A stretch of 64,000 nt of DNA from Candidatus Nitrosocosmicus sp. (GTDB lineage: Archaea; Thermoproteota; Nitrososphaeria; Nitrososphaerales; Nitrososphaeraceae), in NCBI GenBank assembly GCA_031177355.1, contig JAPSGR010000002.1:34161-98160 (forward strand), in the 5' to 3' direction. The notes under the pieces were generated by a model that saw nothing but the letters and a program-made list of their open reading frames with translations, was not told the DNA's origin and did no database searches. A program made the position numbers and the translations under genes. Shown piece by piece: positions 20,418 through 25,889 of the stretch (the first letter of the stretch is position 1; the number at the start of each line of letters is the position of its first letter).

Positions 20418-21962
20418 TTAAAGATTAATATTTCCATGTTTTTTCCATGGCCTGCTTTCTCTTTTATTTGAGAGAGCATTTAGTGCGCTAATTATCGTAC
20501 TTCGAGATTCCATTGGATCTATTACCGAATCAATTGTTCCCCTTTCAGCAGCAATGTATGGATTCGCAAACTTGTTTCTATATTCTTTAGCTAAATTTTT
20601 CTTTTTTGCCGCAGCATCAGCAGAATCTTTAAGGCTCTTGCGATGAATAATTGTTATGGCTGCCTCTGGACCGAGTACAGCAATTTCAGCAGTGGGCCAA
20701 GCAATGTTCAAATCGGTCCCTAAATTTTTGCTTCCCATGGCGATATATGCTCCTCCATATGCTTTGCCAATAATGCACGTAATCTTTGGTACGGTTGCCT
20801 CACAATAAGCAAAAAGAAGTTTACTCCCATGTCTAATAATACCATTATGCTCTTGATCAGTTCCTGGTAAATAACCTGGAGTGTCAACTAATGTAATAAT
20901 TGGGATATTAAAAGCGTCGCAAACTCTTACAAATCTTGCAGCCTTGTTTGAAGAGTGTATATCCAAAGCGCCTGCTAAGAATAGGGGCTGATTTGCAATA
21001 ATGCCTACAGATCTACCACCCATTCTCGCAAAGCCTACTACTATATTTTCAGCAAATAGTTCATGTACTTCAAAGAAATTCCCGTTATCGACCAAGGATT
21101 TTATGATTTCCTTCATATCATAAGATTGGTATGGATTCTCAGGTAGTATATTGATCAAATTTGGATCGAGTCGACTCGCATCGTCAGTGTTCTCCATTAT
21201 TATTTTAGGTTCTTCTCTATTATTTTGTGGTAGAAAAGAAATCAAAGTCTTTATCTTATCCATACAATCGACTTCATCTTTTGCTATGAAATGAGCTACT
21301 CCTGATTTTGTAGCATGAGTCCTTGCTCCACCTAATTCTTCAAATGTCACCTCTTGACTGAGCACCTCTTTTACAACCTCTGGTCCTGTTACGAACATTT
21401 GTCCAATGTTTTCAACCATGATCACAAAATCCGTCATGGACGGCGAATAGACTGCACCTCCAGCACAGGGCCCAATACTTGCGGTTATCTGCGGAATTAC
21501 TCCCGAAGCAAGCGTATTCTTTAAGAATATGTCTCCATATCCGTCCAAGCTTGACACTCCTTCCTGAATCCTTGCCCCACCAGAATCAAGAATACCAATA
21601 ATTGGACAGCCTACTTTGAGCGCTTGGGACATTACTTTAGAAACCTTTTTGCCAGCCATTTCTCCTAAAGAACCCCCTAAAACTGTAAAATCATAAACAT
21701 AGATGAATACTTGTCTGCCGTTAATTGTTCCAAATCCCGTAACCAAACCATCACCATAGAATTTCTTTAATTCTGGATCATCGCTTCTATGAGTTACAAA
21801 TTTATCAATTTCTGTAAACGTATTTGGATCCAATAAAAGATTTATTCTCTCTCTTGCAGTCAGTTTACCCTTCGAATGCTGGGATTCAACTTTATCTTGA
21901 CCACCACCGGCTTCAGCGCTATGCTTTCGGTTATAGTATTGTTTTAGTTTCTCCTCATGCAT
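20418..21962 (-). CDS. pccB: Carboxyltransferase subunit of acetyl/propionyl-CoA carboxylase
   Basis: GKLTARERI, DSGGARIQEG, GPCAGGAVY, DTPGYLPG, KAYGGAY and KKHGNINL motifs. Confidence 0.96.
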   Translation of the reverse strand: MHEEKLKQYYNRKHSAEAGGGQDKVESQHSKGKLTARERINLLLDPNTFTEIDKFVTHRSDDPELKKFYGDGLVTGFGTINGRQVFIYVYDFTVLGGSLGEMAGKKVSKVMSQALKVGCPIIGILDSGGARIQEGVSSLDGYGDIFLKNTLASGVIPQITASIGPCAGGAVYSPSMTDFVIMVENIGQMFVTGPEVVKEVLSQEVTFEELGGARTHATKSGVAHFIAKDEVDCMDKIKTLISFLPQNNREEPKIIMENTDDASRLDPNLINILPENPYQSYDMKEIIKSLVDNGNFFEVHELFAENIVVGFARMGGRSVGIIANQPLFLAGALDIHSSNKAARFVRVCDAFNIPIITLVDTPGYLPGTDQEHNGIIRHGSKLLFAYCEATVPKITCIIGKAYGGAYIAMGSKNLGTDLNIAWPTAEIAVLGPEAAITIIHRKSLKDSADAAAKKKNLAKEYRNKFANPYIAAERGTIDSVIDPMESRSTIISALNALSNKRESRPWKKHGNINL

Positions 21963-22070: not shown

Positions 22071-22304
22071 CTACTCGACTACCTTTTCTTTTATTTCCCG
22101 CAATCCATTCCTTCCACCTTTAGCGCGCCTAAAATAATTGAGTCCTAAATTATAATTATCATATAATGATTCTAAGGTTTCTATCTCCATCTTTAAAAAT
22201 TCCTTCTCATATGTGGAAGATTTATTTGTATTCTGCAAATCATTTAATTTTTTAATCTTTTCTGTGAGGAGTTTACTAACATTATATTCATATTCGGAAG
22301 ACAA
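22071..22304 (-). CDS. Small hypothetical protein
   Basis: 77-aa helical-looking ORF, co-oriented with its neighbours. Confidence 0.55.
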   Translation of the reverse strand: MSSEYEYNVSKLLTEKIKKLNDLQNTNKSSTYEKEFLKMEIETLESLYDNYNLGLNYFRRAKGGRNGLREIKEKVVE

Positions 22305-22354: not shown

Positions 22355-22804
22355 TTATTTCTTAATTTTTCGTTGGAACGCGTCCTTGTATTCTCTCAAA
22401 ACGCGGCTGTTAAATCCATTCATACATATGCTACAATACATAGTTTCTACCTTATCAGTTTTTTCCTCAACATTAATTAGATTAATAATCAAAGGATCTT
22501 GAGTATCGACCAAGGTATTACAAATAAAGCATTGTCCGGTTTTAACATCTGTTCTAAATTTATTGCCATTGTTATACTTATCAGTCATTCGAAGGTTACC
22601 ACACTTTTCTTGTCCGTGGGATTCAATCTCATAATTATTTGAATTTTGTAAACTATAACAAGCCTCATGAATAATTGCTTTTGAAGATTTCGACCAATAT
22701 CCGAAATCCCCTGTTTTTATCTTTCTTTTACAGGTCAAACATAGCCCTGAAAATTTTATTTTAATTTTTATCCAGTCTGTAAAAGAAGAGATATCATTGG
22801 TCAT
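22355..22804 (-). CDS. Hypothetical protein with two putative zinc-binding modules
   Basis: KF.G.CLTC..KIK.G...W......HEAC at the N-terminus; CFIC...YCSIC at the C-terminus. Confidence 0.65.
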   Translation of the reverse strand: MTNDISSFTDWIKIKIKFSGLCLTCKRKIKTGDFGYWSKSSKAIIHEACYSLQNSNNYEIESHGQEKCGNLRMTDKYNNGNKFRTDVKTGQCFICNTLVDTQDPLIINLINVEEKTDKVETMYCSICMNGFNSRVLREYKDAFQRKIKK

Positions 22805-22861: not shown

Positions 22862-24085
22862 TTATCTTAATTTTTCCTTCTCAATAATTTCATTTAATTT
22901 TGTATTATCAGAATTGTCAAAATCAATAGTCGATATATCAGAATTTTTTAGAATCTGTATAAAGTAGGTGTAATAAAAGAGCCCAACACTACTTGTTCCA
23001 GTGTGAACCTTGGTAGACAATTCCATTCTAATCGGTTTAAGTGTCTGACCCCGCATAAATATTGAGCCGATCAATGGGAATGGAAGTGAATATTGATTAT
23101 ATTTCATAGAGGGAATTCTGCTTAGGTCAAACAGTTTCCAAATCAGAAGATCATTTGCATATTTTAATAATCTCCAATGTCGTTTCTCGTAGATTTTGTT
23201 TACAAATAAATCTAATTCAGATAACTGATGCAACAAGGTTGCCATATCCTCTATGGTAACATTCCTATGATTACTCACAATAGTTGTGTACAATGCATTT
23301 AAAAAATCCTTACTACGCTCCTCTTGACTATACCCAAATTTAGGAGTGGAATAACGTATTGATGAAAGAAGTAATATTTTTTTAGCCTCTGATTTATCAG
23401 TAGTTGAAAAAAATCTATTAACACATTCTTCAATTGGTATCTCTGATCCGCCCTTGGTATCACTAAGAATATCACCTTCTACAAGGGTTTGCAACGCATT
23501 TAAAACACTCCGTGCATCGCCCCTACTTTGCTTAATTATATCAAGTTTCTCTTTTTCATCAAGACTTTGTTTCTCCTTATCTAGAACATGTTGAATTAGA
23601 AGATAACTTGCAAAAGAGGATAGTTGGTGGAATGTTATAACCTTACTATTCTTGATTATGTCTTTAATCTTTTGGTTTTTTGAATTTGATGCCATTATGA
23701 CAGGGATTTCAGCATTTTTCAGGATTGATACTAAAAAAGCTGATCCTCCGTAATCATCTCTACCTGAAATTCCGTCAATCTCATCCAAGAAAAGCAAAAT
23801 TTTCTTGCCTGATAGACTAGAATTAAATAAGAGAGGATTAATAATGGTTTCTAAATTTATCTTGTTTCTAAGGTCACTGGCATTTAGCTCTATCAAATCA
23901 TAGTCAAAGTATGTGGATAAAGATTTTACAAAGGATGTTTTTCCTGTTCCAGGTGGACCTACCAATAAGAGTGGCTTGGTACCTTTCACCCACTTAGCAA
24001 GCCACTCTATTATATTAAGCCTTTCTTGCTCATTCCCAAAAAAACTATCTATGCTATCCACTCTATATTTCTCGGTCCACATCAT
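22862..24085 (-). CDS. rfcL: Replication factor C large subunit
   Basis: MWTEKYR, GPPGTGKT Walker A, ELNASD, LDEIDG Walker B and GDAR sensor motif. Confidence 0.9.
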   Translation of the reverse strand: MMWTEKYRVDSIDSFFGNEQERLNIIEWLAKWVKGTKPLLLVGPPGTGKTSFVKSLSTYFDYDLIELNASDLRNKINLETIINPLLFNSSLSGKKILLFLDEIDGISGRDDYGGSAFLVSILKNAEIPVIMASNSKNQKIKDIIKNSKVITFHQLSSFASYLLIQHVLDKEKQSLDEKEKLDIIKQSRGDARSVLNALQTLVEGDILSDTKGGSEIPIEECVNRFFSTTDKSEAKKILLLSSIRYSTPKFGYSQEERSKDFLNALYTTIVSNHRNVTIEDMATLLHQLSELDLFVNKIYEKRHWRLLKYANDLLIWKLFDLSRIPSMKYNQYSLPFPLIGSIFMRGQTLKPIRMELSTKVHTGTSSVGLFYYTYFIQILKNSDISTIDFDNSDNTKLNEIIEKEKLR

Positions 24086-24111: not shown

Positions 24112-25242
24112 CTAGGTCCTAATCTTAAGATCTCGTTGGAACTTTTCTAAAAGATCAGTTCGTTTTTTAACCAATTCGCTATACCAGAATTCATTATAAT
24201 GACTGACAGTCAAAAACAAAAATTCAAGGTACGGTTTTATTTTAAAATCATCATCTAGCATCTCCAGTGCCAAATATGCTTCTGACAAATAAGATTTACT
24301 TTTCTCCAAAGTCAGTTTGAATCCAGACCTTACATCTTGAGTAAGTGAAGAATAGAAAAGAGGCCATGAAGGAGATTTAATTCCACCAGTTCCGATAGCG
24401 TCTTGAATTTCATTACCGCAGCCTACGCATTCTGCTGCTTTAGCCATTCCAATATAATAAATTTCTGATAAAGGTTTTTGATTAAGACACATATTTTTTC
24501 CGGCCGTACCAAGAATAGAACGATATTTTTTGTAACTGCGTTCTAAATTGTCAAACGTTAAGGCGATGGAATTAGTTTTTAAGTCGTAATCAATTTTCTG
24601 TCCCAATAAAGCATCCGTAAATCCTGCCTCAAACTCATTCATTACATCCGGGCCAGCTTGTTTAATTTTATTCCTTGCCAATGACAGAATGTAAGGGTTT
24701 AGAAATTTATAATCTTCAAGGTAATCGAGATCCTCATCCATATCTACAATCCTATCCATTGGTTCACTAAGATCAATTGCTATCAAATGTCCATCTATTA
24801 CATTGTCACGCAGTGTGTTATCTTTGAAATTCTTAGTTTCAGTATAACCATCAAAAAGAGCATAAAATACAGGATATGTCATCTTTATGAAATTTGAGTT
24901 AAGTATCCTATTAATTCTATCATTCAGAACGTTACTATCAGCCATTCTGGTCATAATAATTTCAATTTGGCTTTGTTGCAGCTCAAGTTCATCAGTGCCA
25001 CCTATTTCATCTATAAAAGACTTGTGGGTCTCAATGGGAGAAGAATCAGAATTTATCAAACTATAAATTCCATCTTTGTAACGTTTTACAAATCCGTCAT
25101 ATTGCTTTGTGGATTCTGTTAAATAATGTTTAAATAAAATATATTTTTTGTCCTTTAGTAAACCACTCCTGAGTATCTTCCTACCAGAAGGGGTTCTCAA
25201 CAAATTTATCTTATTAAAAATATGATCGTCTTTACTGCTCAT
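24112..25242 (-). CDS. Conserved hypothetical protein with possible divergent isoprenoid-synthase fold
   Basis: Long ORF in the rps7-rfcL run. Motif order DRIVD...GQKID...YKKYRS.L...GNEIQD...IKSPSWPL (see findings). Confidence 0.7.
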   Translation of the reverse strand: MSSKDDHIFNKINLLRTPSGRKILRSGLLKDKKYILFKHYLTESTKQYDGFVKRYKDGIYSLINSDSSPIETHKSFIDEIGGTDELELQQSQIEIIMTRMADSNVLNDRINRILNSNFIKMTYPVFYALFDGYTETKNFKDNTLRDNVIDGHLIAIDLSEPMDRIVDMDEDLDYLEDYKFLNPYILSLARNKIKQAGPDVMNEFEAGFTDALLGQKIDYDLKTNSIALTFDNLERSYKKYRSILGTAGKNMCLNQKPLSEIYYIGMAKAAECVGCGNEIQDAIGTGGIKSPSWPLFYSSLTQDVRSGFKLTLEKSKSYLSEAYLALEMLDDDFKIKPYLEFLFLTVSHYNEFWYSELVKKRTDLLEKFQRDLKIRT

Positions 25243-25280: not shown

Positions 25281-25889
25281 TTACCTAGACGACATTGCTA
25301 TTCTTTCTTGTTCATTCTTCTTTTTGATTGCATAACTATTCATATCGTTATCGGATGCCAATATGATTTCCTTTGCCAATACTTCTTCCATAGTTTGGGG
25401 AGAAGAATAAGTTGATTCGCGCACACCTTCCGCTATAAACCTCAATGCTAAATCAACGCGCCTCAGGGGAGAGACGTCAACTGAGACATGATACACTACC
25501 CCTCCATATACTATACGAGTAGTATCTTCGTTTGGAGAAGAATTCTCTATGGCTCTTATAAGTAATTCAACAGGGTTCCTCCCAGTTTCTAATGAGATTA
25601 TTTCAAGAGAAGTTTTTACTACATTCATGACTCTTGCTTTCTTACCACCCATTCTACCAGTGTTTTTTGCATATCTTTTTCCAAAATGCATTAACTTGTT
25701 AGCTAATCGCTCAATTATATTGACTTCTGCTTTCTTTAAACGCTGATGCTCATGGCGTCCAAATGTAACTGGTATAGTCATTGATGGATGTAAATGTATT
25801 ACATTTTTTAATCCTTCATCTTCAATCTCGATATTGGTTGTATCCCATTTGTTGAAGAGAAGCATATTCGTTTGTTCTTTGCCGCTCAT
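25281..25889 (-). CDS. rps7: 30S ribosomal protein uS7
   Basis: LFNKWD, ERLANKLM, NPVELL.RAIENSSP.ED, YHVSVDVSP.RR and ERIAMSSR motifs. Confidence 0.97.
   Translation of the reverse strand: MSGKEQTNMLLFNKWDTTNIEIEDEGLKNVIHLHPSMTIPVTFGRHEHQRLKKAEVNIIERLANKLMHFGKRYAKNTGRMGGKKARVMNVVKTSLEIISLETGRNPVELLIRAIENSSPNEDTTRIVYGGVVYHVSVDVSPLRRVDLALRFIAEGVRESTYSSPQTMEEVLAKEIILASDNDMNSYAIKKKNEQERIAMSSR

Follow-up and report, generated by a model that had tools for sequence, protein, structure and literature searches.

Background

Insect terpene synthases of the isoprenyl diphosphate synthase (IDS) type and chrysanthemyl diphosphate synthase share the isoprenyl diphosphate synthase (IPPS) fold: the allylic, Mg2+-binding site is kept, and the condensation with isopentenyl diphosphate (IPP) is lost. 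HexA, HepS and the small subunit of plant geranyl diphosphate synthase (GPPS) are also IPPS-related, helical proteins, devoid of elongation activity and encoded near their catalytic partners. The gene compared here with these systems, indicated as X, is located within a stretch of 64,000 nucleotides from the ammonia-oxidising archaeon (AOA) Candidatus Nitrosocosmicus sp. (assembly GCA_031177355.1, contig JAPSGR010000002.1, positions 34,161 to 98,160); the whole stretch is referred to as the window. An earlier note, drawn up from the sequence alone, had seen in its product a degenerate trans-isoprenyl diphosphate synthase (trans-IPPS), either an enzyme or a non-catalytic partner subunit. In the following, X denotes the family of this open reading frame (ORF) and X2 a newly found sister subfamily; no description of the X family was found in the literature. 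The analysis places X among the very remote relatives of trans-IPPS and points, with a probability of roughly 0.6, to an active Mg2+-dependent enzyme, which would ionise a prenyl diphosphate and use an acceptor other than IPP, in ether-lipid or isoprenoid metabolism.

AOA belong to the most abundant microbes on Earth; the TEX86 palaeothermometer is founded on their isoprenoid lipids, glycerol dialkyl glycerol tetraethers (GDGTs) and crenarchaeol. As of a 2022 review (PMC9385802), the enzyme that forms the cyclohexane ring of crenarchaeol had not been identified.

Fold and homology

The position of X is reported in Table 1, along with those of its motifs, of its neighbours and of the X2 loci. 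The protein is soluble: it contains no hydrophobic segment, and its maximum Kyte-Doolittle mean over 19 residues is 0.73. No Pfam or NCBIfam family is matched at E <= 1, which leaves out PF00348, the trans-IPPS family, as well as PF03936, PF19086 and PF00494; phmmer and profile searches of the Protein Data Bank (PDB) also returned no polyprenyl synthase.

The structure was predicted by AlphaFold2 on a 27-sequence alignment, and the resulting model is all-helical, with a predicted local distance difference test score (pLDDT) of 93.6 and a predicted template modelling score (pTM) of 0.90. When this model was compared to the PDB by Foldseek, the best 50 matches were all trans-IPPS: farnesyl diphosphate (FPP), geranylgeranyl diphosphate (GGPP), hexaprenyl, heptaprenyl, octaprenyl, solanesyl and C45 synthases, all with probability 1.00, E-values from 4e-4 to 7e-3 and template modelling (TM) scores on the target of about 0.5-0.68. 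The isoprenoid-synthase fold, for which the earlier note had suggested looking, is therefore the one predicted: an all-alpha class I fold, most similar to trans-IPPS.

A second line of evidence comes from X2, a much more distant homolog of X found by profile search of a DPANN phylum. This subfamily consists of 58 proteins of about 390 residues, whose source names are "Aenigmarchaeota" and, in one case, "Bathyarchaeia"; all are hypothetical and none has a Pfam match. The X and X2 profiles align over 335 columns with a probability of 99.5% (E = 3e-22). X2 in turn matches a set of 32 canonical PF00348 sequences, taken from the phylum of X itself, with a probability of 88.8% (E = 2.5e-6). A merged X and X2 profile, with the window protein as master, matches the same set over residues 161-333 (probability 91.2%, E = 1e-6); in the controls, one reversed and ten column-shuffled profiles, P was 0.064 or above in all cases. 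The X2 model (pLDDT 90.6) has 48 Foldseek matches at E <= 1e-3, the best being the GGPP synthase (GGPPS) of Pyrococcus horikoshii (E = 1.4e-5), and its best 50 structural matches are all trans-IPPS or their elongation domains. As judged from models and profiles, X is a true, very remote member of the trans-IPPS superfamily, outside the curated family PF00348.

Conserved residues and predicted active site

The five motifs listed in the earlier note stand at the places it gave in the X ORF, within a protein that is predicted to be all-helical: DRIVDMDED covers residues 163-171, GCGNEIQDA 274-282 and GIKSPSWPL 287-295, the remaining two being reported in Table 1. In the 27-sequence alignment, which reaches down to 27-37% identity, 15 columns are invariant: F118, D163, D167, D169, E170, L175, Q215, D218, K239, G245, G265, D281, W293, L329 and F343. 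When a 20%-identical homolog is added, nine are left (F118, D163, D167, Q215, D218, K239, G265, D281 and L329), and six of these nine fall within the 40 residues of the motifs originally noted (hypergeometric P = 6.7e-5). The conservation of the motif residues among orthologs therefore holds, and the motif observation is confirmed as functionally meaningful, beyond chance. Constraint on the whole protein is also strong, since X retains 51-53% identity from Nitrososphaeraceae to Nitrosopumilaceae, against only 35-38% for the adjoining large subunit of replication factor C (RFC-L).

Table 1. Coordinates of X, its motifs, its conserved neighbours and the X2 loci. Positions are those of the window, except for X2, where contig and position are given; residue numbers refer to the X protein.
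Feature	Position	Strand	Basis and remarks
Gene X	24112..25242	minus	ORF list; ATG start, 376 aa; soluble, all-helical
First Asp-rich motif (FARM equivalent), D163-R-I-V-D167-M-D169-E170-D171	24730..24756	minus	C-terminal end of helix 142-167
GQxxD equivalent, G214-Q215-K-I-D218 (residues 214-218)	24589..24603	minus	Aligned to GQSMD
Y237-K-K239-Y-R-S-I-L (residues 237-244); K239 = KT Lys equivalent	24511..24534	minus	Alignment, invariance
Second Asp-rich motif (SARM equivalent), N277-E278-I-Q-D281	24400..24414	minus	D281 invariant; profile alignment
P291-S292-W293, family-specific loop after the SARM helix	24364..24372	minus	W293 invariant, P291 and S292 at least 90% conserved
rps7	25281..25889	minus	PF00177, E = 1e-38; 38 bp upstream of X
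RFC large subunit	22862..24085	minus	NF003229, E = 1e-61; 26 bp downstream of X
Cys-rich zinc-ribbon protein	22355..22804	minus	ORF; tblastn match downstream of RFC-L in 20 of 21 AOA loci
X2 subfamily members	L062:1477-2670(-), L066:7001-8200, L067:7001-8170, L065:7001-8143		

Residues were mapped onto the trans-IPPS site from alignments. D163 and D167 correspond to the first and fifth positions of the first DDxxD (the first aspartate-rich motif, FARM), being aligned to DDIMD, and both are invariant down to 20% identity. The second position is R164 in the window protein and Ser in some lineages, and L172-D173 occupy the place of the RRG that follows the FARM. The GQxxD motif is represented by Q215 and D218, and the Lys that binds diphosphate in the KT motif by K239; all three are invariant. 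The second aspartate-rich motif (SARM) varies among lineages: NExxD in AOA, DDFQD in DPANN members of X, DExxD in two other lineages and DDFED in X2, where D282-D283 align to the DD of canonical enzymes; the register of the direct alignment of X with the canonical SARM is ambiguous by one residue. D163 and D167 are placed on helix D, and N277, E278 and D281 on helix H.

The correspondence does not extend to the IPP site. In the alignments no conserved counterparts of GKxxR or RRG were found, and no invariant Lys or Arg occurs N-terminal to K239; the IPP-binding GGKRLR(P) segment aligns to non-conserved residues of X. To judge from these alignments, the allylic-diphosphate and metal site of X appears to be intact, unlike its IPP site.

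The earlier reading of the motifs needs adjustment at three points. A second Asp-rich motif is present, as proposed, but the suggested "QDA" register is one helical turn off, the true motif being N277-E278-I-Q-D281. GIKSPSWPL, taken as similar to GKxTxP, is not of the GK(x)T type: its Lys is not conserved, and the conserved part is P291-S292-W293. Finally, "degenerate" is an overstatement, the metal-binding positions being invariant.

Taxonomic distribution

A large collection of proteins contains more than 2,200 homologs of X; with a single exception, those with a name are termed hypothetical, and the named homologs come from Nitrosocosmicus and other Nitrososphaerales. A phmmer search of 1.84 billion representative proteins gave only 77 matches, and a scan of genome contigs with the single X sequence only two close loci. 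The gene occurs once per genome in 57 of 57 Nitrososphaerales genomes, from three families, and the rest of the class (64 genomes) has none. A search that started from the nearest homolog outside AOA detected it in 60 of 60 Nitrososphaerales genomes and in none of 341 genomes from elsewhere in the phylum. The restriction anticipated in the earlier note is thus borne out, the X family being essentially limited to Nitrososphaerales within its phylum. The X, X2 and merged hidden Markov models (HMMs), run without filters, detect no member (best E > 1) in a closed genome from the same class that is not of an AOA (1,593,902 bp) and that carries two canonical PF00348 genes.

Gene context

Outside AOA, X and X2 are found close to lipid genes. 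In a maximum-likelihood (ML) tree rooted on X2, the AOA clade has as its sister a clade that is represented by P0123, P0198 and L161 (ultrafast bootstrap 98). In this sister clade X belongs to a same-strand cluster, with gaps of 14-45 bp, in the order type 1 IPP isomerase (IDI1; NF002995, E = 4e-26), X, a divergent protein similar to the geranylgeranylglyceryl phosphate synthase (GGGPS) family (NF003198, E = 2e-13; TIGR01768, E = 5e-8; under the curated cut-offs), and a short-chain prenyl diphosphate or GGPP synthase (E = 5e-48). Two DPANN-type genomes, with 49% identity between their X proteins, have X in divergent orientation beside a gene for glycerol-1-phosphate dehydrogenase (G1PDH; NF002022, E = 1e-43 to 6e-50), next to which lie one or two GGGPS-family genes; apart from this, their flanks are rearranged. 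In two contigs, X2 is separated from a G1PDH gene (E about 1e-110) by a single nucleotidyltransferase gene, and a geranylgeranyl reductase (GGR) gene is found near X2 in L066 only; one Bathyarchaeia contig with X2 shows no lipid genes. Since G1PDH and GGGPS serve archaeal ether lipids exclusively, the repeated linkage in three deeply divided branches of the family is the main evidence for a role in this pathway. The link to archaeal lipids suggested in the earlier note is therefore supported by the gene context of non-AOA relatives; for its more specific part, regarding crenarchaeol or quinones, no link was found.

GGGPS-like proteins of about 255 residues, with YLEGGSG and GGSI motifs, are encoded right after X at L028:1225-1992, L063:2513-3283 and L161:1908-2684. 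These proteins of the sister clade, missed by Pfam and far below the NCBIfam cut-offs, may form a new GGGPS-like subfamily.

The context in AOA is a different one. The order X, RFC-L, zinc-ribbon protein, with gaps of roughly 10-50 bp, is found in 18 of 18 Nitrosopumilaceae and 3 of 3 Nitrosocosmicus loci (21 of 21, from two families); in a Nitrosocaldaceae metagenome-assembled genome (MAG) the ortholog adjoins neither rps7 nor RFC-L. Further upstream of X in the window lie the genes for rps12, a NusA-type KH protein and L30e. The position of X in an rps12-rps7 unit had been taken as a sign of importance, an argument that does not extend to AOA at large: rps7 directly precedes X only in the three Nitrosocosmicus loci and in none of the 18 from Nitrosopumilaceae, and the conserved neighbour is RFC-L.

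Other genes of this part of the window are reported for completeness. The zinc-ribbon protein encoded after RFC-L is a candidate clamp-loader accessory factor. Its gene is followed by a 77-aa helical ORF with no family match (22071-22304, minus strand) and by the gene for a 514-aa carboxyltransferase (20418-21962, minus strand; PF01039, E = 2e-189), which presumably serves the thaumarchaeal CO2-fixation cycle as beta subunit of acetyl/propionyl-CoA carboxylase.

Proposed reaction

In the favoured reading, X would bind an allylic prenyl diphosphate; the genes that surround it in other lineages make GGPP the most likely one. The invariant carboxylates and the Lys would hold the (Mg2+)3-diphosphate of this substrate, as in trans-IPPS, and the enzyme would ionise it in a Mg2+-dependent manner. 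The prenyl cation would then pass to an acceptor other than IPP, or be quenched intramolecularly or by water; the acceptor could be an intermediate derived from glycerol phosphate or a second prenyl chain, or there could be none, as in a terpene synthase. This would set X near the node of archaeal isoprenoid and ether-lipid metabolism formed by glycerol-1-phosphate (G1P), GGPP and geranylgeranylglyceryl phosphate (GGGP), where, in AOA, it would supplement rather than replace the canonical GGPPS, GGGPS and UbiA-type enzymes.

The phyletic pattern (all AOA, no other Nitrososphaeria, a sister clade in a lipid cluster) fits an AOA-specific isoprenoid step. That X performs a prenyl transfer or cyclisation for which no enzyme is known, fixed at the origin of AOA, is a rather unlikely extension of this reading. 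One example, equally doubtful, would be carbocation chemistry on an unsaturated geranylgeranyl chain, toward the cyclohexane ring of crenarchaeol; another, with similarly small chances, would be the prenylation, by an enzyme of the IPPS fold, of an acceptor derived from glycerol phosphate; in the X2 lineage, such an enzyme could even replace the TIM-barrel GGGPS.

Several results weigh against the reading of X as an ionising enzyme of lipid metabolism. Its homology to trans-IPPS rests on a structure model and on transitivity through X2. The Foldseek E-values of the X model are modest and its root-mean-square deviations (RMSDs) high, and the X profile alone reaches no significance against the 32 canonical PF00348 sequences (global probability 0.3%, local P 0.02-0.04), although the pairing of GQxxD, of KT and of the second acidic motif proposed in the earlier note is already present in its best long local alignment. 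The second Asp of the FARM is Arg, and the first of the SARM is Asn in AOA, so that metal binding by X, as deduced from the alignments, is no more than plausible. In AOA, X never adjoins lipid genes, its conserved neighbours being RFC-L and the zinc-ribbon protein; the homologs within lipid clusters are only 30-43% identical to X (20% for X2), and their substrate may differ from that of X. Finally, no known gap is filled: AOA own two canonical PF00348 proteins, a strong PcrB/GGGPS (170 bits) and three to five UbiA proteins.

One of the AOA PF00348 proteins is fully canonical, with GKRIR, DDIID, RRG, KT and DDLID all intact. In the host genome, the higher-scoring polyprenyl synthase (contig C55:45781-46791, outside the window) has IRH for RRG and DDLIG as second motif; the other paralog, on contig C90, is fully canonical.

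Alternative readings

X could be a chain-elongating prenyl diphosphate synthase whose IPP site is unconventional, for instance a dedicated GGPP synthase or the hexaprenyl diphosphate synthase for menaquinone-6; on balance, this is improbable. Medium- and long-chain synthases (C45 Rv0562, hexaprenyl, heptaprenyl, octaprenyl) are found among its structural matches, and a small residue, S159, stands four positions before the FARM, as in long-chain enzymes according to known chain-length rules. Yet no conserved Lys or Arg matches GKxxR or RRG; besides, AOA hold their two canonical enzymes, and X of the sister clade adjoins a canonical GGPPS gene. A genomic hint comes from G156, a DPANN MAG of 0.6 Mb which contains X, G1PDH and two GGGPS genes, with neither PF00348 nor UbiA. 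This genome also raised the possibility that X replaces GGPPS. The argument is a weak one, as 6 of about 88 PcrB-positive MAGs of its phylum lack PF00348 too, and a replacement is made still weaker by the canonical enzymes of other X-bearing lineages.

Two more replacements were considered. The X2 genomes G199 and G241 contain PF00348 and UbiA and no detectable PcrB or CarS. The missing PcrB is suggestive of an IPPS-fold substitute for GGGPS; the idea that X2 replaces GGGPS is weakened by the fact that these are two related genomes only, that 17 other PF00348-positive, PcrB-negative genomes have no X2, and that very divergent GGGPS-like genes escape Pfam. A replacement of digeranylgeranylglyceryl phosphate synthase (DGGGPS) by X was rejected, since AOA have three to five UbiA genes and the X2 genomes have UbiA.

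The second alternative, put forward in the earlier note as a non-catalytic partner, is that X is a prenyl-diphosphate-binding subunit, scaffold or regulator which assists GGPPS or GGGPS. Such a role would suit a protein that has the IPPS fold but lacks the IPP site, and whose gene, in relatives, neighbours those for GGPPS and GGGPS-like proteins; entries for the heteromeric hexaprenyl and heptaprenyl diphosphate synthases (HexPS and HepPS) occur among the structural matches. The invariance of the metal-binding positions argues against it: D163, D167, D281, Q215, D218 and K239 are unchanged down to 20% identity, the pattern of a working active site. X, moreover, is not small, being a full-length protein with about 110 additional N-terminal residues. 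A non-catalytic X is therefore disfavoured, and its likelihood is low.

CDP-archaeol synthase (CarS, PF01864) cannot be detected in 120 of the 121 genomes that represent the class, whether AOA or not, and is present in the other genomes of the phylum that were tested (4 of 4). The archaetidic-acid-activating enzyme of the class appears to be either unassigned or too divergent for the Pfam model.

It was considered whether X replaces the missing CarS, or provides another route to a CDP-activated lipid, in archaea that lack it. PF01864 is absent from four of four AOA and three of three DPANN genomes with X or X2 and found in four of four Thermoproteota devoid of X, and X2 clusters with G1PDH and a nucleotidyltransferase in genomes without detectable PcrB. 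The complementarity seen in these 11 genomes failed at the level of the class, where the genomes negative for PF01864 include 63 non-AOA ones without X, and where the closed non-AOA genome contains neither X nor X2 even by local profile search. CarS, furthermore, is a polytopic membrane protein; X has no membrane segment and no PF01864 match, and the chemistry would be unprecedented for the fold. As a general explanation, a replacement of CarS was rejected, its chances being very small.

It is just as hard to credit that X works with the DNA replication clamp loader, its isoprenoid-synthase fold being recruited to a non-isoprenoid role: the tight order with RFC-L and the zinc-ribbon gene in all 21 AOA loci of two families would favour this, but non-AOA homologs never adjoin RFC and adjoin lipid genes instead, the Nitrosocaldaceae ortholog is not beside RFC-L, the conserved residues are those of the diphosphate and metal site, and archaeal operons often combine unrelated functions.

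Comparison with known systems

An orphan gene, universally conserved in AOA, is now placed in the superfamily of prenyl-diphosphate enzymes, and becomes a concrete target for biochemistry. X and X2 together would constitute a new marker family for annotation. If the favoured reading, that of an enzyme acting on prenyl diphosphates without IPP, is true, X would widen the known reaction space of the trans-IPPS fold.

With terpene cyclases and with squalene and phytoene synthases (SQS and PSY), X shares the alpha-domain architecture and the presence of Mg2+-binding acidic motifs. At the level of motifs only, the DKDED stretch fits DxxED, and YKKYR..GTAG recalls the YxxxVAGxVG of PSY and SQS. No terpene cyclase, SQS or PSY is found among the best 50 structural matches of X or X2, and a search of X for the NSE/DTE triad gave no conserved (N/D)Dxx(S/T)xxxE, position 285 not being conserved. 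Non-catalytic small subunits have lost the Asp-rich motifs and are usually shorter, whereas X keeps its acidic motifs invariant.

The canonical trans-IPPS of PF00348, such as the GGPPS of P. horikoshii (1WY0), the hexaprenyl diphosphate synthase of M. luteus (3AQB_B) and M. tuberculosis Rv0562, are all-alpha proteins like X, and share with it the two acidic motifs on the opposing helices D and H and the order and spacing of GQxxD and KT. X differs in its FARM, where D-R-x-x-D followed by an acidic DED replaces DDxxD...RRG, and in its NExxD SARM; it has no conserved GKxxR or RRG, and features the N-terminal extension and the conserved PSW loop. In its predicted mode of action, X is most similar to those trans-IPPS-derived enzymes that gave up IPP condensation, namely the IDS-like terpene synthases and irregular prenyltransferases descended from FPP and GGPP synthases; these, however, are still recognisable as members of PF00348, while X lies far outside that family.

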